A program made the position numbers and the translations under genes. From contig MGCU01000023.1 of NCBI GenBank assembly GCA_001790525.1, positions 5,659 to 69,658 of the forward strand: DNA of 64,000 bases. The letters run 5' to 3'. This DNA is from Candidatus Saccharibacteria bacterium RIFCSPHIGHO2_12_FULL_47_16b. Lineage in GTDB: Bacteria > Patescibacteriota > Saccharimonadia > Saccharimonadales > UBA10212. This document shows, one piece after another, positions 4,778 through 59,665 of this stretch; the first letter of the stretch is position 1; each line of letters opens with the position of its first letter. A model generated the notes under the pieces. It ran no database searches. It was not told where the DNA came from and saw only the letters and a program-made list of their open reading frames with translations.

Positions 4778-4890
4778 AAATTGAAGGACAACCTGCGGTT
4801 TTCCTTCAACGCGCCTTTTGGAATGAATTCAAATTCGGCTAATGCCGAACCGGCGCTACTACCTTTCCCTTTTTAAGCTACACTAGGAAT

Positions 4891-5504: not shown

Positions 5505-5546
5505 TTATTTTAATGCTGGGCAAGCAAAACCCTGTGCCTTATTTTA

Positions 5547-5613: not shown

Positions 5614-5698
5614 CCGCTTGGCTACTCCCCACCGAAGCTTTGTTATTGTAACACCTTTAACGGTTAAGTTTTACAGATGAATCTAAAGTAATTATAAT

Positions 5699-6652: not shown

Positions 6653-6661
6653 AGTATACTA

Positions 6662-6831
6662 GACATGAACAGGTTCATGCATTTACAATTTACCATTTAC
6701 CATTTATCATTAATTTCCCATTTGTCATTTACCAAACAAACTGCAACTGATATCTGTAAATTGCTAAATGATAAATCATTGAGAATTGAAAAATGTGAAT
6801 TGATAATTGCGCCGACACAAGGAGGCGCGGT
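6662..6831 (+). repeat. Dispersed intergenic module (family 2), forward orientation, upstream of the glycosyltransferase gene
   Basis: TTTACCATTTACCATTTATCATTAATTTCCCATTTGTCATTTACCAAACAAACTGCA...TGTGAATTGATAATTG...GGAGGCG is near-identical to the rc of the rpsH-rplF spacer (43013-43241). Confidence 0.7.
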
Positions 6832-8079: not shown

Positions 8080-9184
8080 GCCCGATGGCGTCTCACAATA
8101 CGTCAGGACGTTGGGGGCTTGGCTAGCTAAAGGCGGCCATAAAGTTACCTATTTAGTCGGTCAATCAAAACTGCCATCATACGCTGGCGGCAAGGTCTAT
8201 TCCTTAAGCAAAAATCTACCCGTTAGTTGGGGCGGTAGTCGCTTATCAATTTCAGTTTTTCCAAAATTGAAGGCCATAAAAAAAATTCTCGATCAAGAAG
8301 ATTTTGATGTAATTCATGTCCAATTTCCTTACTCGCCTTTTATGGCAAAGTTGGTAATTAATGCTGCCAAACCGCAAACGGCAATTGTCGGCACGGTTCA
8401 TATATATCCTGCCAACCGACTGGCAGTGGATGGCTCGCGAGCCTTAAAGATAATTTATGGCAAAAGTCTTAAGCGGATTGATAAAGTAATTAGCGTTAGC
8501 CGGGCTGCAGCCAACTATGCTGATGATGTTTTCAAGCTGCAGACTGATATTTTACCGAACGTGGTTGATCTAGCAAAATATCAATCCACCGCAATGGTCA
8601 GCCAACAACAATCTAAACACATTGTTTTTTTAGGCAGGCTGGTTAAACGTAAAGGCTGCCAACAGCTACTAGAGGCCTTTCGATTACTTTTGAAAAAAGA
8701 TGCCGATGTGCACTTGAGCATTGGCGGCCAGGGTCCGTTGCGAACTAAACTCGAGCGCTACGCTAAAAACTATGGTCTTGAAAACAATGTTAAATTCTTG
8801 GGTTTTGTGCCTGAAGAAGCTAAGCCGTCTCTACTGGCTAGTGCGGCCATTGCCTGCTTCCCTTCTCTTTATGGCGAATGTTTCGGGATTGTCTTAATTG
8901 AGGCCATGGCGGCTGGTAGCGGCGTAGTTATCGGCGGTGATAATGAAGGCTATCGCAGCGTGCTTGGAAGCCGACCGAGCCTGTTAGTCAATCCTAGGGA
9001 ACCTCAAGACTTTGCCGACAGATTGTATCAGCTATTAAACAATAGCGCTTTAGCCAAAAAACTACATCAGTGGCAACAAGCAGAAATTAATCAATACGAC
9101 GTTGCAGTAGTTGGTCCAAAGCTAGTGGAACTTTATAAAGAGACAATTGCCAAGCGCCGCTCAAGCATGCATAATTTAGGTTAA
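8006..9184 (+). CDS. GT4-family glycosyltransferase (second tandem copy; 5' end overlaps the previous gene by 74 nt)
   Basis: GECFGIVLIEAMAAGSGVV and N-terminal DGVSQYV...KGGHKV. Paralogous to the upstream glycosyltransferase. Confidence 0.7.
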   Translation: MLIARMQRNSGKLSVAFLYDDSLDRPDGVSQYVRTLGAWLAKGGHKVTYLVGQSKLPSYAGGKVYSLSKNLPVSWGGSRLSISVFPKLKAIKKILDQEDFDVIHVQFPYSPFMAKLVINAAKPQTAIVGTVHIYPANRLAVDGSRALKIIYGKSLKRIDKVISVSRAAANYADDVFKLQTDILPNVVDLAKYQSTAMVSQQQSKHIVFLGRLVKRKGCQQLLEAFRLLLKKDADVHLSIGGQGPLRTKLERYAKNYGLENNVKFLGFVPEEAKPSLLASAAIACFPSLYGECFGIVLIEAMAAGSGVVIGGDNEGYRSVLGSRPSLLVNPREPQDFADRLYQLLNNSALAKKLHQWQQAEINQYDVAVVGPKLVELYKETIAKRRSSMHNLG

Positions 9185-10260
9185 TGGAGAGACCGAGAAA
9201 GATAACGGTCGCGGTGACTAACCGGACAATGGTCCGAGCCATCTTCTGGCTGGCTGTCGCCGTGCTTGGTTATAAATTTATCGGCATGGTTTCTCATGTA
9301 CTGACTTTAATCGCCGCGGCTGTCTTTGTGGCTCTAGCGCTTAATCCGGTAGTCAGTGCCATTAGCCGACGCCTGAAAGTTCATAGTCGGATTCGGGCCA
9401 CTGCTTCAGCCTATTTACTGGTGGTGGCAGTTCTAACACTGTTCTTCGTATTAGTTATTCCGCCGCTAGTACAACAAACTCGGGATTTTATTAGAGATGT
9501 TCCGCAAAAAGTTCAGAATTTCCAAGATCAGGATAATAGTCTGTCTCGAGCGGTCAAGCGCTACGATTTAGACGAAAAGTTAAACCAAGCCGCTAAAGAC
9601 TTTGCCTCTAATTACGGTGGCTTTGGCTCCAAATTACTCGATACCGGCCGGCGGGTAGTTGAGGCGCTAGTTTCAGTATTAGTGGTTTTGGTTTTGGCCT
9701 TTATGATGCTAGTTGAGGGTCCGGCCTGGCTAGAAACTTACTTTAAGGTTTTGCCAGAAAGAAAGCGTGAGCATCACCGGCGCCTAGCTCATAAAATCTA
9801 CCGAGCGGTTACAGCCTTCGTCAACGGCCAGGTCATATTAGCTGCCGTGGCTGGTCTGTTTGCTTTTATCGCTCTAGAAATTGCTGGTCAGGTGCTGAAT
9901 ATACCGACTAACGCGGCGGCTTTAGCTGGTATTGTGGCGGTCTTTGGGATCATTCCATTATTTGGCAACCCGATTGCTGCCAGCGTTGTGGTACTGGTTA
10001 GCCTGCTAAATTCAGGGGCTCTAGCTGTCGTCATGGCTATTTACTTCATCGTCTACTTCTTTATTGAAAATCATACCTTCCAACCTTACATCCAATCTAA
10101 GTTAAGTGAACTAACCCCGCTAACGGTCTTTATAGCGGCTTTGATTGGTATTGGCTTTGGCGGAATTTTAGGTGCGATCGTGGCAATTCCGGCAGCTAGC
10201 ACCGTTAAGATCATAATCGAAGATTACGTCCGACGTCGCCGTCAAGTTGTTGGCAGTTAA
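9184..10260 (+). CDS. AI-2E family (PerM/UPF0118) membrane transporter
   Basis: ~8 hydrophobic segments. Size and topology match the AI-2E family. Start overlaps the glycosyltransferase stop. Confidence 0.55.
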   Translation: MERPRKITVAVTNRTMVRAIFWLAVAVLGYKFIGMVSHVLTLIAAAVFVALALNPVVSAISRRLKVHSRIRATASAYLLVVAVLTLFFVLVIPPLVQQTRDFIRDVPQKVQNFQDQDNSLSRAVKRYDLDEKLNQAAKDFASNYGGFGSKLLDTGRRVVEALVSVLVVLVLAFMMLVEGPAWLETYFKVLPERKREHHRRLAHKIYRAVTAFVNGQVILAAVAGLFAFIALEIAGQVLNIPTNAAALAGIVAVFGIIPLFGNPIAASVVVLVSLLNSGALAVVMAIYFIVYFFIENHTFQPYIQSKLSELTPLTVFIAALIGIGFGGILGAIVAIPAASTVKIIIEDYVRRRRQVVGS

Positions 10261-16246: not shown

Positions 16247-16352
16247 CTTTCGGGCTTAATTCTCAGTTTACAATTTACAGTTTTCATTATTTTTTCATTG
16301 ATAATTGAACATTGATCATAGATCATTGTGAATTGGAGAAATTTCATTGCGA
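16247..16352 (-). repeat. Family-2 intergenic module (TTTACAATTTACAG / CATTGATAATTG / GAGAAATTTCATTGCGAC palindrome at the dnaX stop)
   Basis: Direct repeats TTACAATTTACA and CATTGA tandems. Palindrome GCAATgaaATTTC-type adjacent to the upstream stop codon. Confidence 0.55.
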
Positions 16353-17852: not shown

Positions 17853-18365
17853 CTAAAGAGCGGCTTCTAGAGCAGCCCATTCGGTATTAACGCTGTCGTC
17901 AGCCGGAATATTGACACTAACTTGATCACCGGGCTTTGCTTTAAAATAGGTCACCGACGCTAATAATACGCGGTACTGTTTTTTACCAACGTCTACGTAA
18001 TAATGACCATCCTTCTGACTTAGGAGACCAACTACTTGTTTACGTGGAATTGGCCCGATTTGCTTATACATAAAAGCCCCGTCATCACCGATAGTAAGTT
18101 TTAAAATGTCGCCTTGGACCAGCTTAGATTTTGAAGCATAATTGGCCGGTACAGGATATGTCTTGCCGTCGGAACCAACCATATTTTGACCGTCAAATAC
18201 GCCTTCAATAACCTTGCCGAGAGAGTCTTCCTTAACTTTTTTGGTTAGCACTTTATCGTCACCGACTAAACTAACCAATAGTTCCTTAGCTGCGGCCAAG
18301 GAAGTTTCAGCTTCAGTAATCAAAGCTTTCAGACGTTTGACCTGTTTTTCTGGTATATCTGTCAT
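17853..18365 (-). CDS. hypothetical protein
   Basis: 170-aa ORF with coherent codon usage between rplL and dnaX. No recognisable motif. Confidence 0.45.
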   Translation of the reverse strand: MTDIPEKQVKRLKALITEAETSLAAAKELLVSLVGDDKVLTKKVKEDSLGKVIEGVFDGQNMVGSDGKTYPVPANYASKSKLVQGDILKLTIGDDGAFMYKQIGPIPRKQVVGLLSQKDGHYYVDVGKKQYRVLLASVTYFKAKPGDQVSVNIPADDSVNTEWAALEAAL

Positions 18366-23611: not shown

Positions 23612-23731
23612 CAGTGTCGCTCCTTTCAGTCGCTTCCAAGCTCGAAGTTCTAAACACTAGGGTTTGAAATTTAGAATTTAGAATTTGAAATTTGTTTATG
23701 ATTTCGGGTTTAGTATTCAGGGTTTTCATCT
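23612..23731 (-). repeat. Family-1 AT-rich repeat spacer upstream of rplK (TTCTAAA / TTTGAAATTTAGAATTTAGAATTTGAAATTTG)
   Basis: Tandem and inverted ATTTAGAA/TTCTAAAT motifs. Conserved AGCGACTGAAAGGAGCG leader next to the start codon. Confidence 0.55.
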
Positions 23732-24274: not shown

Positions 24275-24368
24275 AAGACTCTCCTTTTAGCCGCAGAAAC
24301 TAGAAAATAGGAACTAGGAAGTAGTATTACTAATTCCTGATTGCTGATTTCTAATTGCTTGATCTGAA
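24275..24368 (-). repeat. Family-3 imperfect long hairpin spacer (AACTAGAAAATAGGAACTAGGAAGTAG / TACTAATTCCTGATTGCTGATTTCTAATT)
   Basis: The left half is ~70% complementary to the right half. Homologous copies at 43632-43728 and 59567-59665. Confidence 0.55.
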
Positions 24369-36027: not shown

Positions 36028-36184
36028 CTCCGGTGCTCGGTTTTCAGTTTACCGTTTACAGTCTTCAGTAAGTTGACAGTTTTCAATTTACAGTTATTCA
36101 GTGTTGCTACATTGATCATTGATAACTGATTGTTCATTGTGAATTGTGAATTGTAAATTGTAAATTGGAATGACGCAGTCATGA
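36028..36184 (-). repeat. Family-2 intergenic module between rpoA and rplQ
   Basis: GAATGACGCAGTCATGACTAG palindrome spanning the rpoA stop. (GAATTGT)/(AAATTGT) and CATTGA tandems. CACCTCCGGTGCTC SD hairpin next to the rplQ start. Confidence 0.6.
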
Positions 36185-38828: not shown

Positions 38829-38965
38829 CAGACGTTCTCTCCGGTCGCTTCAAACCCTAAGTTCGAAGTTCTAAACTCTAAAGTTTGGTAATTGGAATTT
38901 AGGATTTGGAAATTGTTTAGAAATTCGGGTTTAGAAATTAGGTATTGGAATGTCGAAGGCATGAC
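38829..38965 (-). repeat. Family-1 AT-rich repeat spacer between rpmJ and rpsM
   Basis: TTCTAAACTCTAAAGTTTGG ... ATTTGGAAATTGTTTAGAAATTCGGGTTTAGAAATTAGG, an inverted TCTAAA/TTTAGA arrangement. Confidence 0.55.
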
Positions 38966-43631: not shown

Positions 43632-43728
43632 ACGCCACTCCTTTCAGTCGCTCTAGAAACTAGGAAATAGGAAATAGGAAATAGTGATTTTACTAATTTC
43701 TGATTACTAATTTCTAATTTCATAATCC
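43632..43728 (-). repeat. Family-3 imperfect long hairpin spacer (AACTAGGAAATAGGAAATAGGAAATAG / ACTAATTTCTGATTACTAATTTCTAATTTC)
   Basis: Homologous to 24275-24368 and 59567-59665. Confidence 0.55.
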
Positions 43729-43998: not shown

Positions 43999-44236
43999 CA
44001 GGCAACTCCTTCCGTCGTTGCAATTATCAATTCACAATTATCAATTTTCAACGATTTATCAAATATCAATTTACAGATTAAAGCAGAGGTTGCAGCTAGT
44101 TTGGTAAATGGTAAATGAGAAATTAATGGTAAATGCCTGCCCCGCATCAAATCCTGAGCGGAGTAGTCTGCAATCAGATTATGCAGCATCAAGATTTGGT
44201 GCCGGGGGTAAATGGTAAATGGTAAATGGAGCAATT
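43999..44236 (-). repeat. Family-2 intergenic module between rplE and rpsN, carrying nested hairpin mini-element copy 3
   Basis: CAATTATCAATTCACAATTATCAATTTTCAACG..., (AAATGGTAAATG) tandems, and the GCAATTTCATTGC palindrome at the rplE stop. Confidence 0.6.
44140..44208. repeat. ~70-nt hairpin mini-element, copy 3
   Basis: CCCCGCATCAAATCCTGAGCGGAGTAGTCTGCAATCAGATTATGCAGCATCAAGATTTGGTGCCGGGGG. The termini are an imperfect inverted repeat. Confidence 0.55.
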
Positions 44237-45573: not shown

Positions 45574-46053
45574 TCACTTTTTAGACTCCTTCGGTGAACT
45601 TTTTTCGGAAAGTTGGTCCTTGCTTGCTGGCTTAGCATTTTGTTTGTCTTTTACTGTCGCCTGCCTGCTGTCCACTGGTTTCTGTCCAGTCTCTTCTGGA
45701 CTCTGGACTCGGGACTCTGGACTCTTTGCCTTAAGCTTCGGTTGGGGCTGTTGCTTTTTTGTAAGTTCTTCAATTGGCACATCGGCAGTAACGTCAGTTT
45801 CTTTATAGCCAATGCGAGCTTTATCGACAATTTTTTCCAGAACAAAATGCTTACGAGCACTTAATGGTCGGCTTTCACGAATAATAACTTTATCGCCAGT
45901 TTTAGCTTCGTTCTTCTCGTCATGGGCCATAAGCTTTTTACTAACGGAATACCGCTTCTTGTAAACAGGATGCGTCTTAGCAGAAGTCACCATAACGACG
46001 ATGCTTTTATCATTCTTATCACTCACTACCATACCTAAAATTAAGCGGGCCAT
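45574..46053 (-). CDS. rpsQ: 30S ribosomal protein S17 with ~75-aa Lys/Pro/Ser-rich C-terminal extension
   Basis: S17 OB-fold core in the first ~85 aa. The tail is ...[61 protein letters not shown]. Confidence 0.85.
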
Positions 46054-46675: not shown

Positions 46676-46832
46676 CTCCGGTGCTCAATTACCAATTCAC
46701 AATTTACATTTTTCAATAAGTTTTCATTTATCAATTTATAAATAGAAAATAAGTCTGCAGCCAGTTTGTTAAATGACAAATGCAAAATAAATGGTAAATG
46801 GTTAATGGAAAATGGAAAATGGAATGACGCAG
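46676..46832 (-). repeat. Family-2 intergenic module between rpsC and rplP
   Basis: GCACCTCCGGTGCTCAATTACCAATTCACAATTTAC..., (AAATGG)n tandems, and the GAATGACGCAGTCACGA palindrome variant at the rpsC TGA stop. Confidence 0.6.
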
Positions 46833-47465: not shown

Positions 47466-47586
47466 CAGACGCTCCTCCCAGTCGCTTCAAGCTCTAAACT
47501 CGAAGCTCGAAACCCTAAAATTCGGAATTTAGAACTTAGTGTTTGGGATTTGTTTAGAAATTCGGGTTTAGAAATTAGAGTTTCCA
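47466..47586 (-). repeat. Family-1 AT-rich repeat spacer between rplV and rpsC
   Basis: CTCTAAACTCGAAGCTCGAAACCCTAAAATTCGG ... ATTTGTTTAGAAATTCGGGTTTAGAAATTAG. Conserved leader AGCGACTGGGAGGAGCG next to the ATG. Confidence 0.55.
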
Positions 47587-47967
47587 TTATTTAACTTTCT
47601 TTGTATGTTCGGACGATGGCTTTTTAACAACTCTCTTTTCTCCGTCAACTAACACTTTGATGTGGCTAGTTTTATGCTGGTATGGCAAAGCTCGGCCTCG
47701 GGCCGCTGGTCGGTATCGTTTAAGACGTAAACCAGCGCCAACTGTTATTTGGCTAATGTATAGGCTATCCGGCTTGTAGTTGTGATCGTGCACGGCATTG
47801 GCTCTAGCGCTAACAATAACTTTTTTTATGGTAACGGCCGCTCGCCGAGGCGTATGCTCTAGGATGGTAATAGCGTCATTGACAGATCGGCCACGTACCA
47901 AAGAGGCCACTAGTGCGGCCTTGCGCGGACTAACTCGAGCGCTACGATATTCGGCTTTAACTGGCAT
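47587..47967 (-). CDS. rplV: 50S ribosomal protein L22
   Basis: L22 family. Confidence 0.85.
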
Positions 47968-48376
47968 CGGTTTGGCCTTCCTCTGGTTGAGCTGTTACAC
48001 CTTCGGCTGATTCTTCCTTAGCCGCCTCCGGTTTGGCAGCTTCAGCTTTACCGGTTTTACCAGCCTCGGTAGCTGGTGCAGCTGTCTTCATCGCTTCGGC
48101 TTCTTCTAGGCTCTTGGCTAGTTTGCCGCCGTGAACCTTAAACTTTCGAGTTGGGGCAAATTCACCTAGCTTGTGACCGACCATATTTTCTGTAATAAAG
48201 ACCGGTATATGGACTTTGCCATTATGTACGGCAATAGTTCGCCCAACGAATTCCGGCGGAATCGATGAAGCTCGAGCCCAGGTTTTGACAGCTGTTCGGT
48301 CGTCGGCCGACATAGCGGCTATCTTTTTGGCCAGCTTAAAATCAATAAACGGCCCTTTTTTGAGCGATCTACCCAT
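47957..48376 (-). CDS. rpsS: 30S ribosomal protein S19 with ~45-aa Ala/Glu/Lys-rich C-terminal extension
   Basis: S19 core ([33 protein letters not shown]). Tail [34 protein letters not shown]... Confidence 0.85.
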
Positions 48377-49234: not shown

Positions 49235-49559
49235 TCTTTTTAACTTCTATATCTGATTTTTCAGTCTCCGTAAAAAACGGTAAACTCTGGCCGCTTTGCA
49301 AAGTTACATAAGCCTTCTTGTATGGTTTGTGATGAACCCTAATAAAGCGACCACGTTTCCGATAAAATCTTAACGGCTTAGCTGACGAAGCAGCTAGTCG
49401 GACAGTGCTAATCTCAACCTTATATTGTTTTGCAACCATATCAGCAACTTGTTGTCGGCTGGCATTTTTTGGGACAACAAAGATATAGGTATTTAGCTCC
49501 TGACTCTGCCGATAAGCCTTTTCGCTCATCTGTGGTTTGATAATTATCGCCGCCTTCAT
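49215..49559 (-). CDS. rplW: 50S ribosomal protein L23
   Basis: L23 family. Confidence 0.85.
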   Translation of the reverse strand: MKAAIIIKPQMSEKAYRQSQELNTYIFVVPKNASRQQVADMVAKQYKVEISTVRLAASSAKPLRFYRKRGRFIRVHHKPYKKAYVTLQSGQSLPFFTETEKSDIEVKKSDRKVL

Positions 49560-50215
49560 TTACTAGCCTCCCTAACGGTGGTTTTTTGACCAAGCCAAGC
49601 ATGGATAATTTCCACGGCTTTTTTGGATAAAACAATACTGTCTGCATTTAGCACATCAAAGACTGTCAAATAATTGGCGGCTACCGCTTGGACGTTGTCC
49701 AAATTCCTGGTAGCTCTATCAACTAACTCGTCCTTTTGTGAAACTACCAATAAGACCGAGCCTTTGGTGCCGATTTTCTGTAGCAGACTAATGGTTGGCT
49801 TAACTTGGCCGCTGGAACAATCGAAAGTTTCGATAACGCTAATTTTGTCGGAATTTGCGGCTAGGCTTAGAGCTTGACGCAACGCTTGGCGTTTAGTCTT
49901 GAGACCGATTTTACGCTGATAATTTTCGTAGCCAGTTGGACCAAAGGCCACACCGCCACCCCGCCAAATCGGGTTACGTCTGGAACCAAAACGCGCCTGT
50001 CCAGTACCCTTTTGGCGCCACGGTTTACGGCCGCCGCCGCGGACTTCGCCCCGTCTTTTAGTTTTAGCCAAGTTTGTTCTACCGCTCGATTGATAAGCCA
50101 GATAAGCATCCTGTAAAAGCTGATGGTTAATGTCGGTCTGACCAAATATAGACTTATCAAGCTTGGCTTCCGTCTCGGCTTTAGTGCCAGTTTTAGTATA
50201 GGTCGGTACCGCCAT
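49556..50215 (-). CDS. rplD: 50S ribosomal protein L4
   Basis: L4 family. Confidence 0.9.
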
Positions 50216-50336
50216 CAGGCGCTCCTTCCAGTTGCTTCAAGCTCTAAGTTCGAAGTTCTAAGCTCTAAATTTTGGTATTTAAAACTTCGAGTTTGGTATT
50301 TGTTTAGAGTTTCGAGTTTAGGAATTAAAGCTTTCT
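50216..50336 (-). repeat. Family-1 AT-rich repeat spacer between rplC and rplD
   Basis: AAGCTCTAAGTTCGAAGTTCTAAGCTCTAAATTTTGG ... TTTGTTTAGAGTTTCGAGTTTAGGAATTAAAG. Confidence 0.55.
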
Positions 50337-50951
50337 TCATTTGGCCTCCTTCAATAAAACCAGGCCCTTTCTTGGACCTGGAATTGCACCGGCTACGCCA
50401 ATGAGGTTGTGCTTTGGATCAACAATGGCGATTTTGAGGTTTTTGACTGTCACTTGCTGGCCGCCCATTCGGCCAGCCATTTTTTTACCGGGGAAAATCC
50501 GCTGTGGAAACATCGAACCGATTGAGCCTGGGCGTCGGTAACTGCGGCCACCATGAGTTTTACGGCCACGGGCAAAGCCATGTCTTTTAATAACACCGGC
50601 AAAGCCTTTACCTTTGTTAACAGCCGTTGCATCTACTAAATCGCCAACCGAAAAAATATCGGCGGCCAGTTGGTCGCCGATATTAAGTTCTAGTTCAGCT
50701 TCGTCCTTAATCCGAAACTCGCGCATAATCCTGGCATTAGCCTTGGACTTTATAAGATGGCCCTCTTGGGCTCTGCCGATTTTTTTAGATTGTTCAGCGC
50801 CTAGCTGTATTGCCTGATAGCCATCTGTATCACTAGATTTGATTTGAGTAACTATATTCGGAGCGGCGGTCAGTAAGGTCACTGCGGTAGCTGCGCCCTT
50901 GTCGGAGAGCGTTGTCGTCATACCCAACTTTCTGGTAATTAGTGCTTTCAT
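50337..50951 (-). CDS. rplC: 50S ribosomal protein L3
   Basis: L3 family. Confidence 0.9.
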   Translation of the reverse strand: MKALITRKLGMTTTLSDKGAATAVTLLTAAPNIVTQIKSSDTDGYQAIQLGAEQSKKIGRAQEGHLIKSKANARIMREFRIKDEAELELNIGDQLAADIFSVGDLVDATAVNKGKGFAGVIKRHGFARGRKTHGGRSYRRPGSIGSMFPQRIFPGKKMAGRMGGQQVTVKNLKIAIVDPKHNLIGVAGAIPGPRKGLVLLKEAK

Positions 50952-51139
50952 TAACCGCGTCCTTTGCGCGTTTGTTTGAACATATAGCCGTAAAAATTAT
51001 TGTTGGCATATTAAAAAACTCTCGGTTTTAGCAGTTTCCTTTGATGTACTTTGCGATATTGGACTTACATAAAACCAAGATTGCAGAACTGCAATAGTTA
51101 ACAGATTAACACAATTAATCGACACTGGTCAAGTTGTAG

Positions 51140-51171
51140 TAAAAATTACAGTCGGCCTCAGGTGAGGCCGG
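51140..51171 (-). terminator. Candidate terminator downstream of the yjbQ-like gene
   Basis: Perfect 8-bp hairpin CGGCCTCA-GG-TGAGGCCG followed on the minus strand by AUUUUUA. Confidence 0.4.
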
Positions 51172-51265
51172 AGGTCTGTCCTTGAACAAGGTAAGTGAAT
51201 AGTCGTTTTTACCAAAAAACACATTGCCTTTTTCAAGAACAGACCTCATCGCAAGGTCGGACCTC

Positions 51266-51655
51266 TTAAATTGTCGTTACTATTAATTGTCTGTCGCGAG
51301 GGCCGTCCAGCTCAACCAGCACAGCTCTTTGCCAAGTACCCAGAACTAGTTTTCCGTTTCGAACAGGTATACTTACGGAAGGTCCAATTATCGAACTGGC
51401 CAAATGGGCCGGCACATGAGCTGGATTATGTGGATGACGGTATTTGAGTTTTGGTATCATCTGCCAAACAGCGTCAAGTAAGTCGAGATCAGTTCCGGGA
51501 TCTAAATCGGCGGTCGTCACCGCACAAGTTGTATGCGCCGCGGAAACAATACATAATTTATCGCTAGCCTCAATTAGATTATTAACTTGCTCGGTAATGT
51601 CGATTACTTCTCGGTTTTGGCTGGTTTTTACTGTAAGCTCGATGGTTTTAGCCAT
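51266..51655 (-). CDS. YjbQ/UPF0047 family protein (secondary thiamine-phosphate synthase-like)
   Basis: 129 aa with the family pattern ...CIVSAAHTTCAVT...DLD...H...P.H... Inserted between rplC and rpsJ. Confidence 0.6.
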   Translation of the reverse strand: MAKTIELTVKTSQNREVIDITEQVNNLIEASDKLCIVSAAHTTCAVTTADLDPGTDLDLLDAVWQMIPKLKYRHPHNPAHVPAHLASSIIGPSVSIPVRNGKLVLGTWQRAVLVELDGPRDRQLIVTTI

Positions 51656-51679
51656 ACATCTATAATAACTAACTTTTGA

Positions 51680-52135
51680 TTGGCGGAGATAGTTGAGGCA
51701 TTATATAAGCATATGCAGATTTATAGAGATGGTGATTCATATGTCGTTGTTCTAAAACTAGGCGAAGAGCTGTTTGAATCCCTGACTAATTTTGTTAAAC
51801 AAAATGAACTAAAGTCTGCTTGGTTTGATGGCCTTGGCGCCGCCAAAGAAGTTGAGCTTGGTTATTACCGGCTAGACGATAAGCAGTACTCCTGGAAAAC
51901 TTTTGTCGGACCATTAGAGATTACCGGTTTGCACGGTAACATGGTTTTAAAAGATGGCCAGCCAGTCTTTCACGCCCATGGTTCCTTCGCCGACGGATCT
52001 TATAAGGTCATTGGCGGTCATATAAAAAGACTTATGGTCGCCGGCACCTGTGAAATTTTGGTTTCAAAACTCAATTTAGCTCTGACTCGTAAGTTTGACG
52101 ATGAAGTCGGTCTCGAGCTACTTGAAACGAATTAA
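51680..52135 (+). CDS. PPC/DUF296 domain protein (AT-hook-associated PCC fold), opposite strand inside the S10 cluster
   Basis: DUF296-like segments YVVVLKLGEELFESL...GLGAAKEVELGYY...GHIKRLMVAGTCEIL. TTG start on the track; alternative ATG at 51713. Confidence 0.5.
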   Translation: MAEIVEALYKHMQIYRDGDSYVVVLKLGEELFESLTNFVKQNELKSAWFDGLGAAKEVELGYYRLDDKQYSWKTFVGPLEITGLHGNMVLKDGQPVFHAHGSFADGSYKVIGGHIKRLMVAGTCEILVSKLNLALTRKFDDEVGLELLETN

Positions 52136-52267
52136 CCTAATTAACCTAATTTCTAATTAACCTAAATAATGACCTAATGTGCCAATGACTTAATGAGTAA
52201 AGTTTGGGATTAGGGTTTTGAATTTGTTTAGAGCAATTAGAACAATTAGTGCAATTAGAAATTTAAT
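52136..52267. repeat. Convergent-terminus spacer with TAATTAACCTAA (x3), TGACCTAATG/TGACTTAATG and CAATTAG(A/T) (x3) direct repeats
   Basis: Short direct repeats visible by eye. Between the PPC-gene stop and the rpsJ stop. Confidence 0.45.
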
Positions 52268-52603
52268 TTACATCTTGATCTCAGCATCGCACCCGGCTGG
52301 AAGGGTGAGATTCATAAGGGAATCGACAGTTTTCGGCGTTGGGTCGGTAATATCGATTAATCTTTTATGAACGCGCATTTCGTACTGTTCGCGGCCTTTT
52401 TTGTAAACATGGGGGCTTTTGACAACTGTAAAGGTACTTTTGCGGGTTGGCAGAGGTATTGGTCCGGCAATGTTAGCGCCGGTTCTTAAAGCTGTCTCGA
52501 TTATTTGTTTAGCTGATTGGTCTATAACCTTATGGTCATAGGCCTTCAGACGGATCCTTATCCGTTGCTTAATTTCTGACTCGTTTTTTTTGCTATCCGC
52601 CAT
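52268..52603 (-). CDS. rpsJ: 30S ribosomal protein S10
   Basis: [16 protein letters not shown] is the S10 signature. Start placed at the internal ATG (MADSKK..., 111 aa), 4 nt after the upstream ORF stop. The track ORF extends to 52660. Confidence 0.8.
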
Positions 52604-52607
52604 AGTT

Positions 52608-52856
52608 TTATCGTGGTAAGGTGACCCCGGCCTGTTTAGCGGCTTCCAGTAGTTCGGCATTAAGCCTTAGAAGTTTAGCCTCCACACTAACTTTGGCGAA
52701 GTTTTTGTCAGTTATCACGCTACTTTTCATCTGTTTCAACATCGCATATATCTCTTTAACATCATTCTCTATAGCTTCGAGCTTGCCTTCGAGCGGCTTC
52801 AGCTCTTCGCGCATAATTGAACGAATTTCGCTTAAATCAGTTGCGGTCAAACTCAT
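52608..52856 (-). CDS. hypothetical coiled-coil protein (82 aa)
   Basis: Heptad-like [25 protein letters not shown]. Positioned for translational coupling with rpsJ. Confidence 0.4.
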
Positions 52857-52924
52857 AGTGTTGAGTATTCTAACATTAATTTGATCCGCTGCTTTATTTC
52901 CGGCTCAGCTTTTTTATCTGCCAT

Positions 52925-53230
52925 TTAGTGTCCAATCCTTATTACTTGACCGGGTTTTAGGTCGACTTTACGTTGAGTAGCCAGCATAAAGTTCTTCACG
53001 ATTACCTCAGCTGAGTCATCGTAAGCGATATCCTCATAGCCAACACGTTCACTCTCACTCTCCGGTGGAAAAACAACTTGTGGAGAGTTTTTTGTGTGCC
53101 AATAAACCGTAACTGAGCCATCAGCCTCCGCCATCATTGCGCCTGAGACGCCAGCATATGAGAAAATGCGTCGGAATGGGTCCTCGTCCGTTATGCGATA
53201 TGGAGCTCCGTGGAATTCGACTTTGCTCAT
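52925..53230 (-). CDS. hypothetical protein (101 aa) immediately downstream of tuf
   Basis: Starts 9 nt after the tuf stop. No recognisable motif. Confidence 0.4.
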   Translation of the reverse strand: MSKVEFHGAPYRITDEDPFRRIFSYAGVSGAMMAEADGSVTVYWHTKNSPQVVFPPESESERVGYEDIAYDDSAEVIVKNFMLATQRKVDLKPGQVIRIGH

Positions 53231-53239
53231 TAAATTAGT

Positions 53240-54421
53240 CTATTTTACGATTTTGGTAACGACGCCGGCGCCGACAGTTCGGCCGCCCTCGCGAATGGCA
53301 AACCGCAGACCTTGCTCCATGGCGATTGGTGCTTGCAATTTTACTTTGAAGGTAACAGTGTCGCCGGGCATGACCATCTCTTTATCGGCTGGTAGTTCAA
53401 CTTCGCCGGTTACGTCTGTCGTGCGGAAGTAAAACTGCGGTTTGTAGCCTTTGAAAAACGGCGTGTGACGACCGCCTTCTTCTTTGGTCAGAATGTAAAC
53501 TTCGCTGTCAAATTCAGTGTGCGGCGTAATTGAACCGGGCTTAGCTAGAACCTGGCCGCGCTCGATGTCATCGCGTTCGATTCCGCGCAGCAGTACACCA
53601 ACGTTGTCGCCAGCTTGACCTTGGTCAAGATTCTTCTTGAACATTTCAACACCGGTTACAACCACTTTCTTGGTTGGGCGAATACCGACGATCTCAACTT
53701 CCTCGTTGACTTTGACTACGCCGGTTTCCACACGACCGGTGGCAACTGTACCACGGCCTTTGATAGAGAACACATCTTCGACGGCTAACATAAAGGGTTT
53801 ATCAAGATCGCGCTTGGGCTCGGGAATGTAGTCATCCATCGCCTTAAGCAACTCCATTACAGCCTCTTCATTGGCGGCGTCACCCTCTAGGGCTTTAGTG
53901 GCCGAACCCTTAATGATTGGGCAATCCCTGTCAAATTCGTATTTTTTAAGCAGATCGCGCACGTCTTCTTCGACTAAATCAACTAGTTCAGGGTCGGCCA
54001 AGTCCATTTTGTTTAAGAAAACCAGAATACTTGGCACACCAACCTGTTTGGCCAGCAGCACATGCTCACGAGTTTGGGGCATCGGACCATCAGCCGCGCT
54101 AACAACTAAGATAGCGCCATCAATTTGGGCGGCACCGGTAATCATGTTTTTGATGTAGTCGGCGTGGCCGGGCATGTCAACGTGAGCATAGTGACGTTTT
54201 TCGGTCTCATACTCTTGATGAGATGTGGCAATGGTAATACCTCGGGCTTTTTCTTCTGGAGCGTTATCAATCTGTTCATAAGAAACCGGCTTATTGATAT
54301 CACTTGGTAGCTTTTTAGATAAGACGCTAGTAATAGCGGCTGTTAATGTAGTTTTGCCATGATCAACGTGGCCAATAGTGCCAACGTTAAGATGGGTCTT
54401 AGTCCGATCAAAATCTGCCAT
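53240..54421 (-). CDS. tuf: elongation factor Tu
   Basis: G1 [10 protein letters not shown]3 DMPGHADY, G4 NKMD. 393 aa. Confidence 0.95.
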
Positions 54422-54639
54422 TTTCTCTCCCTTTGCCCACCTAAACTTTTTTAAAGTTTGCGCGGGTTTTCATTATTAGATTAATTATTAAATGCATGAG
54501 TTGTTATCTTACCATGTGGCCGCCGTCCCGCCAGGGCGGGATTGCACCTGAACATGAGAATACTAATCACCCCCATGCGGATATGCGAGAATTATAGATA
54601 AACCTAAACGCTTTGTAAAGTGTAATTAGACAGGAATTC

Positions 54640-55638
54640 TTACGAAATTTCGTCCGGCTTTCTACCAGGCGTGCTATAATCACCGACCGGATGGATTATT
54701 GCGTATGGACCTAAGTCGAAATCTCCAAGCGAATTACTCATTGAGTCTCCAGGACCAAGGTCATAATGATCGACTACTCCTCTGTTGCGCGCGTAATTTA
54801 CACACCCAGTTAGATTAGTTGGTTTGGTCGTTTGCAGGACTAAGTTATTGATTATCGTCTTAGCGCGTCGCATGGGCCTAGCCGTCCTTGTCGCAATAAT
54901 TTCTAAAGTGCTATCTTTGACGCCACCTTCCCTTAGGATTTCGTCCATCATGTAAGCCAATTTTTCTTCAGTAGCTTTTACAAATTTACCGTGAGGCGGA
55001 AACGGCAAGTTATCCAACGCAATCACCCTTCTGACACCAGGAATATCCTCAAGCGCTGCCTTTAATGCAACTTTTTCCTCATTGACATATGTCACCATAG
55101 TTTTAAAAGGTGTGTGTTCACCTCCTAGATGCGAATTCTCAAATTCTTTTACAGTTTTTTTAATAGTGTGTTTCAATCTTTTTGGAGGTGCACTCCGATC
55201 GTGTATGACAACAAAACCCCCGCCCTTTCCGCCAGCTTCTTCTACCTGTGAGCGACCTCTTTCATACGCAGTTATAGCCGCATCACGAAGTGAAATCGCT
55301 CCACCGATAGCAGCCGCCGTGAACTCCCCGGAACTAACGCCTATAAGGTAATCAGTAAAAATCCCACATTCATTGAGTGCTTTGGCGCGGGCGTATCCAA
55401 CTCCGACATTGACCGCTTGGATCACCGCAGGGTCGGTAACGGCTATTTCGCTTCGGCAAACATCAATCACATCTACGCCCGTAGCTATTCCAATTTCTTC
55501 ATAGATTCTGTGTGTTTCCGAGCCCTCTGATAAAAGATCTTGGCCGTCTTTAAAGCTTTTTATGCCTTGGCCTGGAGCATAAAAGGCTATTCTGCGCTTA
55601 ACGGGCGGAGAAGTGAACTCCGCCACTCTACTTGACAT
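54640..55638 (-). CDS. FabD-like acyltransferase-domain protein (malonyl-CoA:ACP transacylase superfamily, GHSxG with His replaced by Val)
   Basis: N-terminal oxyanion-hole motif FYAPGQG and nucleophile elbow GVSSGE (GxSxG), then ...AAAIGG, as in FabD. Confidence 0.55.
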   Translation of the reverse strand: MSSRVAEFTSPPVKRRIAFYAPGQGIKSFKDGQDLLSEGSETHRIYEEIGIATGVDVIDVCRSEIAVTDPAVIQAVNVGVGYARAKALNECGIFTDYLIGVSSGEFTAAAIGGAISLRDAAITAYERGRSQVEEAGGKGGGFVVIHDRSAPPKRLKHTIKKTVKEFENSHLGGEHTPFKTMVTYVNEEKVALKAALEDIPGVRRVIALDNLPFPPHGKFVKATEEKLAYMMDEILREGGVKDSTLEIIATRTARPMRRAKTIINNLVLQTTKPTNLTGCVNYARNRGVVDHYDLGPGDSMSNSLGDFDLGPYAIIHPVGDYSTPGRKPDEIS

Positions 55639-55653
55639 ACTTTTATTATAGCA

Positions 55654-56424
55654 TTATTTGCCAGATTTGGCAAAATCGGCTGCCACATTTCTGACTGGAT
55701 CAGTTAGTGAGGGCAAAATCAAGCTACACTTACGAAAGCTTGCGATTTTCTGAGCCCGCTGGTGGTGAGGGGTTAAGGGGTCTACAACTATTAGATTGGT
55801 TTCTTCTGGCTGAGTTTGATTTAAATTAACGTAGCCTACCGCTAATACAACGTGCTCTGGTAAGTCCATGCTTAATACGCTGCCTCTTGATAACTCTGTC
55901 AGAGCAACTCTAGCCAAATCTTCCCCGGCGAATTGAACATCGTAATAAGAAAAGTCAGCATCAGGAACGATTTCTTCAAAGTGTTCGCTAATCGCCAAAT
56001 TGCCAATTTTTACAACTTGATTTGATAGGATCAGTAGTTCAGCGTCGTTAAAGTATGACCTCAGCTCATCAGTCAAACTAGCATTAACGCGCTCGGCCGT
56101 TACCTGACTTATCTGCCCTTGCCAAAGCATGGCATTAAGTTGATTTGTGTTAACGCAGCTATGTATATCATTATTCTTGCTGTGTTGAGCTAATGGTGTT
56201 ATTTCGGCTGCCGGCTCTATATAATGCGTGACCGATAGATCAGTCATGCCTAATTCGTGTGAGCGGTATAGGAATAAAAGATAAGCCGCCCTTGATCTTT
56301 CCTCTTCCCAAATTTGACCGAGGGTCCTTGTAACAAGTGTCTCAGGACCAATCGTAATAGCTGGCTTGGGACCTACAATAATTGGCGCCTTTCGTCCAGC
56401 GGGCCTAAAACGAGGGTCTTCCAT
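55654..56424 (-). CDS. hypothetical protein with Cys...His...Asp pattern (possible NAT/BtrH/transglutaminase-like acyltransferase fold); C-terminal 13 aa copied from EF-G
   Basis: HSCVNTNQLNAML, HVVLAVGYVN and NLIVVDP spacing resembles arylamine N-acetyltransferase triads. C-terminus ...VRNVAADFAKSGK versus EF-G ...[15 protein letters not shown]. Confidence 0.45.
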   Translation of the reverse strand: MEDPRFRPAGRKAPIIVGPKPAITIGPETLVTRTLGQIWEEERSRAAYLLFLYRSHELGMTDLSVTHYIEPAAEITPLAQHSKNNDIHSCVNTNQLNAMLWQGQISQVTAERVNASLTDELRSYFNDAELLILSNQVVKIGNLAISEHFEEIVPDADFSYYDVQFAGEDLARVALTELSRGSVLSMDLPEHVVLAVGYVNLNQTQPEETNLIVVDPLTPHHQRAQKIASFRKCSLILPSLTDPVRNVAADFAKSGK

Positions 56425-56439
56425 AAGAGATACTATAAA

Positions 56440-58527
56440 CTATTTGCCGGATTTGGCAATTAGGCCGGCTGCCACATTGGCCGGCACATCGGCATAGTGG
56501 TCCAGTTCCATCGATGACGAAGCCCTGCCCTGAGTCATGCTCCTAAGATTGGTGACATAGCCGAACATCTCGCCCAGCGGCGCAAAAGCCGTGATCTCTT
56601 TGATTCCAGGTGATAGATCTACCATCGATTCAATACGACCACGTTTAGAGTTAAGATCGCCAATCACATCACCCATAAACCCCTCAGGCGTGACAACCAC
56701 GATTTTCATAATTGGTTCCAGCAAAACCGGTGAGGCTTTTTTGACAGCATCCTGGAGGGCGGCCGAGCCGGCGATTTTAAAGGCTACTTCGCTCGAATCA
56801 ACGTCGTGATAGGAGCCATCATATAGCTCAACTTTAACGTCAACTACCGGATAACCGGCGATCACGCCATTAGCCATAGCTTCCTCGATACCAGATTTTA
56901 TGGCCGGAATAAACTCGCTCGGGATGGAGCCGCCTTTAATGCTGTTAATGAACTCAAAGCCCTTGCCAGCTTCATTTTGGAAAAGCCGTAGCCAACAGTG
57001 GCCGTACTGACCACGACCACCGGTTTGACGAATGTATTTACCTTCGGCCTCAACGCCGTCTTTACGAATGGTTTCGCGGTAAGCAACCTGCGGCTCACCG
57101 ACATTAGCATCAACTGTAAACTCGCGTTTCATTCGATCGGCGATTATTTCAAGGTGCAGCTCGCCCATTCCAGAAATGATTGTCTGACCGGTTTCATGGT
57201 CGATTTTCATCCTAAAAGTTGGATCTTCTTCAGCCAGCCGTTGCAAGGCTTGGCTCATTTTTTCCTGATCGGCCTTAGTTTTAGGTTCAATGGCAATACT
57301 GACTGGTGGATCGGGAAAAGTGATACTTTCTAAAACAATCGGGTGCGTTGGATCACAAAGCGTATTGCCGGTTGTAGTACCCTTAAGACCAACTATAGCG
57401 GCAATGTCGCCGGCTTCAATTTCGCTAACATCTTCGCGCTTGTTAGCGTGTAACCTAACAATTCGGCCAATTCTCTCTTTTTCTCCTGTGGAACTGTTGA
57501 GGATGTAGCTACCGGCTTCTACCTTTCCGGAATAGGCTCTAAAGAAGGCCAGTTTGCCAACAAAGGGGTCGGTGGCAATCTTGAAGGCTAAAGCTGCAAA
57601 TGGTTCGGAGGCGTCCGGCTTACGCTCAATTTTATCGCCGTTTTTAGGGTTTACTCCCCAAGTCGAGCCACGGTCCAACGGGCTAGGTAGAAAATCAGTT
57701 ACAGCGTCGAGTAATTTCTCAACGATGACGCCCCGGCCATCCCCGCCAGAAACGGCAAAAAACTTACCGGTCAACACCGCCGTGCGGATAGCCTTACGAA
57801 TTTCATCTTCCGAGAGTCCCTCTTCGCCAACCTCCAAATACTTTTCAAGCATTTGCTCATCTTCAGCCACAGCATTCTCAACCAAAAGCGAACGGTATTT
57901 TTTGACTTGATCGGTCATATCGGCTGGTATCTCGCCTTCTATCAAGTTCTTGTCATGGTACTCCTTATAGATGTAAGCCTTCATGGTAATCAGATCGACC
58001 ACGCCATTGACATTTTGTTCAAAGCCAATTGGTAGATGAATCGGAAAGGCTCGTTTGGAAAGTCGGTGATGGATACTGTCCAAGCTTTTATAAAAATCGC
58101 CGCCGGTCTGGTTGATTTTGTTAATAAAACAAAGCCGCGGCACGTTATATCTATCGGCCTGGCGCCAAACGGTCTCGGACTGTGATTCGACGCCCATCTT
58201 GCCATCAAAGACAACCACCGCGCCGTCTAATACTCGTAAGCTGCGCTCGACCTCAACCGTAAAGTCAATGTGGCCGGGCGTATCAATGATGTTAATTTTT
58301 TTATCTTTCCAAAAACAAGTCACGGCGGCAGCTGTAATGGTAATACCGCGCTCTTTTTCTTGGGCCATCCAGTCAGTTGTGGTATCCCCGGTATGGACTT
58401 CACCGATTTTATGCTTTAAGCCGGTTCGATAAAGGATAGCCTCGGTGGTGGTCGTCTTGCCCGCATCAATGTGAGCAATAATGCCGATGTTCCGTAGATT
58501 CTCTAATGGGTATTTTTTATCTACCAT
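56440..58527 (-). CDS. fusA: elongation factor G
   Basis: G1 [21 protein letters not shown]. 695 aa, five-domain EF-G. Confidence 0.95.
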
Positions 58528-58532
58528 ACTAG

Positions 58533-58985
58533 TTATATCTCTATAGTTCTATCGATTATTTTACGGCTCATCCTTGAAGCTGCTTTTTGCACTGCTTCGT
58601 CATGTCGCGTCTTACGCTCCTCAATCTCAGCAACAGGTTGTTTTGATAAATTTTTTCTCTCTAATAACATTTGTACGGCAAGGCATTTTTTTGGTCTTTC
58701 GCCGATAGCCGGCATAAGGCAACCTTGCATGGCTTCAGCAACTTCTTCTGGAGTTGCATCTTTAGAAGATAATCCTAGATCTATTCGAGATATAAGTCTT
58801 CGCGAGCTCAGAGCGACTATCGCCAATCGTTCTGTGTTTGATGAGAAACCTTGAGCTATACTCTGCCACGAACCGGATTGCTTCATATACTTATCGATTT
58901 CATAGCCTAGCGGAGAATTTCCCAGTCTCCTTCTGAAGACACATCGGGCACAAGGCTCCACCATAATTCTTTCGGCGCCTATCAT
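58533..58985 (-). CDS. hypothetical protein (150 aa) between rpsG and fusA
   Basis: Fills an unusually long (559 nt) rpsG-fusA spacer. N-terminal CxRCV and later C residues. No assignable family. Confidence 0.35.
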
Positions 58986-59086
58986 AATTTAAGACCTCGC
59001 AAAGTGGGCCCCTCGACTACGCTCGGGGTTCATTTTACTTTTATTATTTCGTAACTCTTGACTCATTACTCTTTACTCCAGGGCGT

Positions 59087-59566: not shown

Positions 59567-59665
59567 GGTGACCTCCGGTCAGAGTAACTAGAAAATAGGA
59601 ACTAGGAAATAGTAAAGCTAATTCCTGATTGCTAATTACTAATTTCTTAAAAATGCGTAGCATTT
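59567..59665 (-). repeat. Family-3 imperfect long hairpin spacer between rpsL and rpsG
   Basis: AACTAGAAAATAGGAACTAGGAAATAG / CTAATTCCTGATTGCTAATTACTAATTTC. Third copy of this family. Confidence 0.55.

Follow-up and report, generated by a model that had tools for sequence, protein, structure and literature searches.

A stretch of 64,000 nt from Candidatus Saccharibacteria bacterium RIFCSPHIGHO2_12_FULL_47_16b (GenBank assembly GCA_001790525.1, contig MGCU01000023.1, positions 5,659 to 69,658 of the forward strand), here called the window, belongs to a groundwater member of the Saccharibacteria (TM7) and carries the str/S10 gene region, in which tuf (EF-Tu), rpsJ (S10) and rplC (L3) are separated by non-ribosomal genes. 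On the minus strand, tuf is followed after 9 nt by an open reading frame (ORF) of 101 aa (ORF101), which directly abuts (0 nt) a mini-ORF of 23 codons. The mini-ORF overlaps the start of an ORF of 82 aa (ORF82) through the sequence ATGA, and 4 nt separate ORF82 from rpsJ. Beyond rpsJ lie a PCC/DUF296 gene on the opposite strand, a YjbQ/UPF0047 gene, a putative terminator, a putative rplC promoter and rplC (Table 1). Every feature named in the original prediction, which was made from the sequence alone, was recovered in its place, and the spacings given there of 4 nt (ORF82 stop to rpsJ ATG) and 9 nt (tuf stop to ORF101 ATG) were exact. The mini-ORF, a remnant of the 5′ end of rpsJ, had been overlooked.

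Coding content of the tuf–rpsJ–rplC boundaries

The rpsJ product matched PF00338 with 123 bits over profile positions 1–98 of 98; the gene lies in the str/S10 cluster and shares 79–94 % identity with rpsJ of 80 Saccharibacteria species. Both the sequence and public gene calls place its start at the ATG at 52603 (111 aa) rather than at the start of a 130 aa ORF. The same gene order was found on eight independent metagenome contigs from different samples, which excludes mis-assembly. These same-species contigs were retrieved by exact protein match and are therefore a biased sample, with zero differences in the shared stretch from ORF101 to rpsJ; being identical across ORF101 and ORF82, they are uninformative on selection. 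A search of positions 49500–59000 against Rfam gave chance-level matches only.

All four inserts between tuf and rplC (YjbQ, PCC, ORF82 and ORF101) look like real genes. ORF82 is a gene and a member of a conserved family of small helical proteins, with 34 homologues at 41–73 % identity, ten invariant alignment columns and 120 further translated matches in metagenome contigs. Its sequence is identical to that of a hypothetical protein of Candidatus Saccharibacteria bacterium RIFCSPHIGHO2_12_FULL_47. An AlphaFold2 model built from the family alignment consisted of two long helices (predicted local distance difference test, pLDDT, 80), for which Foldseek returned no matches in the PDB, and a search of PDB sequences with the ORF82 profile gave only coiled-coil noise (best E=0.006, to a coronavirus spike helix). 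No relative was detected in phages, either by tblastn in 50,697 phage records or in IMG/VR. ORF101 is very probably a gene, of lineage-restricted distribution. A word-indexed search recovered only ORF101 itself, and an exhaustive HMMER search of 1.84 billion representative proteins was needed to detect just two full-length homologues, P0036 (64 % identity) and P0037 (41 %), both encoded between tuf and rpsJ and with conserved residues distributed over the entire length. Scanning all ORFs of 181 loci with a hidden Markov model (HMM) of the three sequences added no member; an ORF upstream of the rpsJ remnant in L107, considered as a relative of ORF101, was dropped on this result. The best of five AlphaFold2 models of ORF101 was a compact beta-sheet-plus-helix domain (pLDDT 81.5; predicted template modelling score, pTM, 0.75) and the remaining four were poor; Foldseek found no structural neighbour (best match E=0.47).

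Codon usage gave ORF101 a log-odds score of 0.199, equal to the median of 100-codon windows from the real genes of the window, and ORF82 a score of 0.29, while the highest score among 24 spurious ORFs was 0.087, below both. Neither protein matched a Pfam, PHROG, NCBIfam or PADLOC model above threshold, in agreement with their earlier description as unannotatable. The original prediction had allowed that the small ORFs might lack conservation and coding signal; the homologues and the host-like codon usage contradict this. No PADLOC match to anti-phage defence systems was obtained for any of seven proteins, and PHROG matches of the inserted genes were weak and non-specific.

Both genes between rpsJ and rplC exceeded the Pfam cut-offs, which bears out the earlier assignment of a YjbQ/UPF0047 gene and an opposite-strand PPC/DUF296 gene. 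YjbQ matched PF01894 with 103.4 bits (cut-off 27; profile positions 1–116 of 117) and TIGR00149 with 91.9 bits (cut-off 67.75), and PCC matched PF03479 with 99 bits (cut-off 25; profile positions 2–115 of 117). PCC comprises 151 aa from a TTG codon or 140 aa from the ATG at 51713 used by public gene callers, and YjbQ starts on the opposite strand 24 nt from the TTG and 57 nt from the later ATG. The A+T-rich spacer across which PCC and rpsJ converge (132 nt) contains direct and inverted repeats and a long imperfect hairpin (fold z=−3.3), and no canonical terminator was called in it. The closest homologues of YjbQ, found with a concatenated YjbQ and PCC query for which all matches returned were to YjbQ, were 62–72 % identical. 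Their contigs carry GGDEF/PAS, TPR-regulator and cupredoxin genes, unlike the gene content of the candidate phyla radiation (CPR); this fits acquisition of YjbQ from outside the clade, without being proof of it.

The yjbQ gene ends at a predicted compound terminator. Its first part is a hairpin at 51171–51247 with 24 bp arms (51171–51194 and 51224–51247), and its second a G+C-rich hairpin at 51153–51170 with a 7 bp stem containing 6 G-C pairs, followed by ACTGTAATTTTT. The spacer between yjbQ and rplC folds far better than shuffled controls (z=−5.3). The hairpins and U-rich tail have the form of an intrinsic terminator, as originally predicted, and termination in vivo is predicted from this form. 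A promoter-like element lies about 20 nt after the terminator and consists of TTGACC (51132–51127), a spacer of 17 nt and TTAATC (51109–51104) preceded by TGTG. It aligns with a block conserved in many species of the clade (TTGACA-17/18-TGTTA(A/C)TCT), in which a conserved leader comes after the block. With YjbQ co-oriented with the ribosomal genes and PCC convergent with rpsJ, the pair would lie upstream of a strong terminator and, because this terminator is placed about 20 nt before the putative rplC promoter, would be transcriptionally insulated from the ribosomal block.

Table 1. Features of the str/S10 region, in window coordinates
Feature	Position	Strand	Basis
rpoC	63997–60188	minus	
rpsL	between rpoC and rpsG	minus	
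rpsG	59566–59087	minus	
ORF150 (150 aa), rpsG|fusA slot	58533–58985	minus	
fusA	58527–56440	minus	
ORF256, fusA|tuf slot (54640–56424)	55654–56424	minus	
ORF332, divergent FabD-like acyltransferase, fusA|tuf slot	54640–55638	minus	
tuf promoter-like element, TTTACA-17-TATAAT	54619–54591	minus	sequence scan
tuf (EF-Tu)	53240–54421	minus	ORF and translation
ORF101	52925–53230	minus	
23-codon mini-ORF, remnant of rpsJ 5′ end	52853–52924	minus	
Extended −10-like box, TGTTAGAAT, 10 nt before ORF82 ATG	52875–52867	minus	read from sequence; putative function
ORF82	52608–52856	minus	
rpsJ (S10), 111 aa	52268–52603	minus	PF00338, E=4.7e-36
Functional copy of duplicated rpsJ 5′ end	52559–52603	minus	direct repeat, alignment, peptide scan
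A+T-rich convergent spacer rpsJ/PCC, AATTAACCTAA repeats, long imperfect hairpin	52136–52267		
PCC/DUF296 gene	51680–52135	plus	PF03479, E=2.8e-28
YjbQ/UPF0047 gene, 129 aa	51266–51655	minus	PF01894, E=1.1e-29
Compound terminator after yjbQ (predicted)	51141–51247	minus	inverted repeat, terminator scan, fold z=−5.3
rplC promoter-like element	51104–51132	minus	alignment with clade block; putative function
rplC (L3), first gene of compact S10-type block	50337–50951	minus	PF00297, E=1.1e-17
rplD-rplW-rplB-rpsS-rplV-rpsC-rplP-rpmC-rpsQ	3′ of rplC	minus	

Variable slots at four consecutive boundaries

To place the window among its relatives, rpsJ was used for a scan in which one genome per species was retained, giving 80 loci with up to 10 kb on each side, nearly all labelled Saccharibacteria or Patescibacteria. 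Median gaps were 325 bp at rpsG|fusA, 517 bp at fusA|tuf, 577 bp at tuf|rpsJ (range 1–2673) and 1355 bp at rpsJ|rplC (range 134–7641; 72 species). Gaps longer than 150 bp accounted for 77–99 % across the four boundaries, with the highest proportion (99 %) at rpsJ|rplC, while the nine junctions from rplC to rpsQ were compact (medians −1 to 5 bp). The 408 ORFs in the fusA|tuf, tuf|rpsJ and rpsJ|rplC gaps fell into 318 clusters, with 288 singletons. By Pfam, these slots hold ordinary cellular genes (NUDIX, peptidase M29, glycosyltransferases, CTP synthase and several shikimate-pathway enzymes), and the 25 families most often found in 140 gap ORFs included no transposase or integrase. Of the gap ORFs with 90 aa or more, 82 % were co-oriented with the flanking genes.

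YjbQ, PCC, ORF101 and ORF256 were absent within 10 kb of rpsJ in all 80 other species, so that yjbQ and PCC are not universal at this place in the clade, an outcome that the original prediction had left open. A weak homologue of ORF82 occurred just upstream of rpsJ in four of the 80 species, and a single locus (L014) carried, in its fusA|tuf slot, a FabD-like ORF of the same cluster as ORF332. The ORF332 product matched TIGR00128 below the cut-off (E=2e-19), ORF256 had nothing above threshold in PHROGs, PADLOC or NCBIfam, and ORF150 had no Pfam, NCBIfam or PADLOC match and likewise nothing above threshold in PHROGs.

Across the clade the flanking genes are thus conserved, and both the length and the content of the intervals differ from species to species, with the adjacent ribosomal junctions within 10 kb on either side (20 kb per relative) as the control. 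This supports a hotspot of insertion at four consecutive boundaries, clade-wide rather than in this genome alone. The original prediction had described the str/S10 region of this genome as a hotspot of gene insertion; the hotspot stands, and its restriction to this genome does not. The accompanying statement that these junctions are normally compact holds for rpsJ|rplC in model bacteria. It does not hold for the four boundaries in the clade or for tuf|rpsJ in general, because even in Escherichia coli K-12 the tufA|rpsJ interval contains 18 unrelated genes (including chiA, bfd, bfr and the gsp cluster; 16.9 kb). The end of str and the start of S10 are separated by unrelated genes in E. coli as in the window. 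In E. coli K-12, however, the other junctions are short (rpsJ|rplC 32 nt, fusA|tufA 70 nt and rpsG|fusA 27 nt), whereas in Saccharibacteria these three are also expanded, and the inserts of the window are threaded between tuf and rpsJ with spacings of 0–9 nt instead of forming separate operons.

Sequence patterns suggest that the boundaries in the clade divide units with promoters of their own (..rpsG, fusA, tuf, rpsJ, and rplC onward). In 42 of the 80 species the exact 11-mer TGACTAAAAGT was found upstream of rpsJ within a structured element with the consensus [NN]TG-ACTAAAAGTC-variable hairpin-GATGTTA-CA[N'N'], located 64–100 nt upstream of rpsJ in most carriers (e.g. L023:9916–10006 and L086:9914–10006; loci among L016–L088). 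Pairing was maintained in 96.5 % of cells compared with 80 % in shuffles, and the covariation score of 0.473 exceeded those of shuffles (0.16) and of slid controls (0.135 at most); covarying pairs include GCTG/CAGC, GATG/CATC and GGTG/CACC. The L023 leader had no match in Rfam 15, and literature searches found no description of this leader or of the Saccharibacteria slots. The element is a candidate for a new S10 (rpsJ) leader RNA. The motif is absent from rpsJ of the window. Strong expression signals have been taken from the saccharibacterium TM7x, namely its tuf promoter with the tuf terminator and, as a separate signal, its rpsJ promoter (Wang et al. 2023, PMC10633639). Insertion would be tolerated rather than disruptive because the boundaries separate independently promoted units, as suggested by the rplC promoter and the rpsJ leader.

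Several occupants of the slots recur. A small DnaJ-domain protein was found in the tuf|rpsJ slot of seven species (e.g. L064:9381–9800) and a NUDIX hydrolase in the rpsJ|rplC slot of ten (e.g. L026:343–813). Apart from them, the only recurrent occupants were the ORF82 family and a predicted membrane protein of about 97 aa without a Pfam match. The latter was present in 40 of about 75 species, at a median distance of 232 nt upstream of rplC (e.g. L040:1651–1941); it does not precede rplC in the window, where weak tblastn matches to it (E 0.003–0.03) lie at about 17910–18137 on the minus strand.

The window also contains three dispersed families of intergenic hairpin repeats of 100–160 nt that resemble miniature inverted-repeat transposable elements or repetitive extragenic palindromes (73–88 % identical). 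Copies lie at 50216–50336, 47466–47586, 38829–38941, 23618–23728 and 149–268; at 46676–46832, 6680–6812, 44021–44135, 36028–36160 and 16254–16306; and at 59567–59665, 24295–24360 and 43655–43725. Such repeats fill rplC|rplD, rplV|rpsC, rpsC|rplP and rpsL|rpsG, junctions with medians of −1 to 2 nt in other Saccharibacteria, and family 1 ends in a Shine–Dalgarno-like GGAAGGAGCGCCTG immediately 5′ of the next start codon. A comparison of the spacers within the tuf–rplC region with these families was negative. The translations of rpsS (47957–48376, 139 aa) and rpsQ (45574–46053, 159 aa) have long low-complexity C-terminal tails rich in lysine, alanine, proline and glutamate.

Gene-end duplications and the origin of the inserts

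In the window and in the sister contig L096, ORF82 is located inside rpsJ, between two copies of the rpsJ 5′ end (52559–52603 and 52883–52924 in the window; about 45 nt, with a 22-nt core that is 82 % identical). This duplication of the first ~15 codons scored 48 in a peptide scan with a null maximum of 37. L096 has the same full chain, including the remnant, with spacings of 12, 0, 2 and 6 nt, and its mini-ORF reads MADAKKAEPEIKQWSARIK*. The mini-ORF ATG abuts the ORF101 stop in both sequences. In the window the mini-ORF ends in an ATGA overlap with the ORF82 start, and in L096 its stop is 2 nt short of ORF82, despite an 8-nt deletion between the species. Over the first ~40 nt of the mini-ORF 38 of 40 positions are identical, whereas the ORF101 proteins are only 64 % identical; this excess of conservation is suggestive but statistically weak, with an estimate of ~0.001–0.05 depending on the background identity assumed. 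Remnants also precede ORF82 and rpsJ in L106 (MADAKKMDAQRP*) and in L107, where a long remnant ends in ..EPEIKQR and its TGA overlaps the ORF82 ATG as in the window. Where rpsJ has kept its leader, ORF82 is found upstream of the leader and there is no remnant. An intermediate stage is present in another species (L097), in which the tuf stop overlaps the start of the ORF101 homologue (TAATG) and the latter is followed, as TAG|ATG, by an intact rpsJ. In the relatives with the most similar rpsJ N-terminus (..EPE[IV]KQRIRIRL; L009, L010, L015, L017 and L018), the gap between tuf and rpsJ is 1–8 nt.

These arrangements suggest the following history. In this lineage rpsJ would have lost its own leader and come to abut tuf directly, after which ORF101 would have been inserted exactly between the tuf stop and the rpsJ start. 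In a second, nested insertion, ORF82 with its own −10 box would have entered rpsJ at about codon 15, duplicating the first ~45 nt, so that the old rpsJ 5′ end persisted as the mini-ORF running from the ORF101 stop to the ORF82 start. All cistrons from tuf to rpsJ are on the same strand with spacings of 9, 0, −4 and 4 nt, which leave no room for a promoter or terminator, and an unbroken chain of this kind (tuf/9/ORF101/0/mini-ORF/−4/ORF82/4/rpsJ) could pass ribosomes by termination-reinitiation. Translational coupling to tuf and rpsJ had been proposed from the 9 nt and 4 nt spacings; the chain of overlapping or 0–9-nt junctions agrees with that proposal as far as spacing goes, and coupling itself is predicted from it. 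A −10-like box was seen 7–12 nt before the ATG of each ORF82 homologue at 15 loci read by eye and is conserved in the L096 alignment. ORF82 may therefore bring its own, almost leaderless promoter, and independent transcription could be an alternative to coupling.

Two further inserts lie between direct repeats of a gene end. The 3′ end of fusA is duplicated in frame, the upstream copy (the true fusA end) at 56427–56478 and the downstream copy at 55634–55689 (~52–56 nt, 786 nt apart; direct repeats, alignment, blastn 18/19), so that the C-terminal 13 residues of ORF256 (..NVAADFAKSGK*) and the nucleotides flanking its stop codon are a copy of the fusA end. Promoter-like sites occur in both copies (TTGCCA-16-TATAGT upstream and TTGCCA-17-TATAAT downstream). 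The second insert, in L046, is ~860 bp long, carries a 244-aa ORF on the opposite strand and lies between exact 42-bp copies of the tuf 3′ end (8402–8443 and 9303–9344); this insertion looks recent. A peptide and DNA scan of ~240 junctions found gene-end duplications twice in the window and once in L046, with no other clear case: L044 and L074 had marginal scores, and L080 was rejected as probably a broken tuf gene.

The inserts at rpsJ and fusA thus have flanks resembling the attL and attR sites of integrated elements, as direct repeats of the target. ORF82, ORF101, ORF256, ORF332, ORF150, YjbQ and PCC contain no recombinase domain (integrase, transposase or homing endonuclease), and because of this we infer the mechanism of insertion from the repeats. 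Single-crossover or homology-facilitated illegitimate recombination would fit repeats without a recombinase better than a dedicated mobile element. Saccharibacteria are naturally competent and integrate DNA after uptake by homologous recombination (Wang et al. 2023, PMC10633639), and translation genes, among them tuf and those of ribosomal proteins, are over-represented in the predicted genomic islands and transferred genes of Patescibacteria (Gios et al. 2025, PMC12455944), an enrichment compatible with exchange around this cluster.

The explanation that we favour, and consider probable, is that the boundaries separate individually promoted units and that the breaks between them act as slots which collect lineage-specific accessory genes, with nested insertions at tuf|rpsJ. 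A gene landing in a slot would spare the essential transcripts and would usually be co-oriented with very highly expressed neighbours, and the slot flanks, which are among the most conserved DNA of the genome, could provide homology arms for exchange by natural transformation. Several observations weigh against this explanation. Co-transcription, translational coupling and the roles of promoters and terminators are read from sequence patterns. The slots are far more variable than the neighbouring ribosomal junctions, with these junctions rather than all core-gene intervals as the reference. Gene-end duplications at only three of ~240 junctions are not a general signature of slot filling. ORF101 occurs without ORF82 in L097 and ORF82 without ORF101 in L106 and L107, so the linear order of insertions requires either later loss of ORF82, possibly via the flanking repeats, or independent gains. 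Finally, the recurrence of ORF82 beside rpsJ and hpf hints at a function rather than neutral accumulation.

Independently of ribosomal genes, 80 loci of the ORF82 family were fetched from metagenomes, and 47 had adequate flanks. Thirteen of the 47 were beside rpsJ (five upstream and eight in the rpsJ|rplC slot), 13 were between serS and hpf (PF02482, Ribosomal_S30AE) and directly upstream of hpf, and 21 were elsewhere. The serS/hpf arrangement characterizes one group of metagenome contigs (16 loci among L151–L181). Individual look-ups also found a copy flanked by Mrr and McrBC restriction genes, another adjacent to pilin genes and a third close to rpsP. By our estimate, chance would produce far less linkage to translation genes in a genome of ~1000 genes. 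ORF82, and perhaps ORF101, might accordingly be a translation-related factor, for example an S10- or ribosome-associated protein, kept next to rpsJ for synthesis in step with S10. The shared orientation of ORF82 homologues and rpsJ in all 22 metagenome loci that have both in the cluster, the ten invariant columns of the family and the location of all three known ORF101 sequences between tuf and rpsJ agree with such a role. Against it, ORF82 is near rpsJ in just four of the 80 species, and its patchy distribution, with nearly half of the metagenome loci elsewhere and one amid Mrr and McrBC, argues against a core ribosomal role. No likeness to a known ribosomal or translation factor was detected by Pfam, NCBIfam, PDB sequence or fold searches, and linkage to highly expressed operons could simply mirror where insertions are tolerated. 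We regard a translation-related factor as unlikely.

Very improbable, in our judgement, is that a mobile system, site-specific or homology-targeted, delivers the inserts as cassettes to the ends of conserved translation genes and leaves target duplications of 42–56 bp. Gene-end repeats do flank three inserts (ORF82 at the rpsJ 5′ end, ORF256 at the fusA 3′ end and the L046 insert at the tuf 3′ end), the module of remnant, ORF82 and rpsJ 5′ end recurs in four lineages (the window, L096, L106 and L107), and ORF82 homologues occupy many different genomic contexts. Yet the inserts and their immediate surroundings contain no integrase, transposase or homing endonuclease, the three repeat pairs have no common core and the inserts are mutually unrelated; the scarcity of such repeats among the junctions scanned and the absence of ORF82 relatives from IMG/VR and GenBank phages also speak against cassettes, and the four remnant-bearing lineages may share a single ancestral event. 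A combined possibility, itself quite doubtful, is that ORF82 encodes an S10- or ribosome-associated protein and that the module is a self-targeting cassette moved by homologous recombination after natural transformation, with the mini-ORF relaying ribosomes; if this were true, the module, bracketed by two copies of the target 5′ end, could enter or leave any rpsJ by homologous recombination. That the small ORFs are spurious and the tuf–rpsJ interval is an untranslated leader, or that the interval was mis-assembled, might be suggested by the lack of any family match and by the source being a metagenome-assembled genome. This is already contradicted by the evidence and is extremely improbable: ORF82 has its homologues and translated matches, ORF101 is conserved over its full length in both homologues, both codon scores exceed those of every spurious ORF in the window, the order is the same on eight contigs from different samples, and the leader motif used by other species is absent.

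Comparison with known systems and significance

A few intervals between core genes reportedly hold most of the variable genes of bacterial genomes, with fast turnover of content. The slots described here are similarly variable intervals with rapid turnover between conserved core genes, and differ in that the flanks are elongation-factor and ribosomal-protein genes, which form tight operons in most bacteria, in that four consecutive intervals are involved, and in that the contents are mostly one to three ordinary genes with no recognizable mobile machinery. Archaea, cyanobacteria and plastids have the S10 gene behind tuf and apart from the L3-L4-L23-L2 block. With tuf–rpsJ gaps of 1–8 nt, the nearest relatives of the window resemble this linkage, but many Saccharibacteria (42 of 80) keep a separate rpsJ leader, and the detachment takes the form of a variable slot and not of a relocation.

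Islands that target tRNA, tmRNA or guaA genes are flanked by direct repeats of the target end, the replacement end keeping the gene intact. The repeat-flanked inserts share both properties; however, they are only 0.3–0.9 kb long and lack a recombinase, their 42–56-bp repeats have no shared core, and rpsJ is hit at its 5′ end. A single homologous anchor combined with an illegitimate or short-homology join is said to add foreign DNA and to be capable of duplicating recipient sequence. Homology-facilitated illegitimate or Campbell-type recombination would be the best-fitting route for such inserts in naturally competent bacteria. Translational coupling in ribosomal-protein operons operates through ATGA or TAATG overlaps and termination-reinitiation. 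The tuf-to-rpsJ chain, with its stops and starts overlapping or 0–9 nt apart, is alike in form, but two non-ribosomal genes form part of it, together with a relic mini-ORF that stems from the target gene.

Integration hotspots between core genes are already known, and their occurrence in the tuf/rpsJ/rplC region of Saccharibacteria is informative rather than revolutionary as an architecture. Experiments would be worthwhile on the nested insertions that preserve the chain of cistrons, on the relic mini-ORF, which may act as a translational relay, on the rpsJ- and hpf-linked ORF82 family and on the covarying rpsJ leader RNA absent from Rfam. As naturally tolerated, highly expressed insertion sites, the slots could serve the engineering of cultivated Saccharibacteria. 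Their variability touches marker extraction, synteny-based annotation and the calling of horizontal transfer. Ribosomal-protein clusters are regarded as the most stable and syntenic parts of genomes and are used as phylogenetic markers and as binning anchors for the CPR/Patescibacteria; the first four boundaries of the cluster in Saccharibacteria are the opposite, namely fast-turnover slots filled with ordinary accessory genes.

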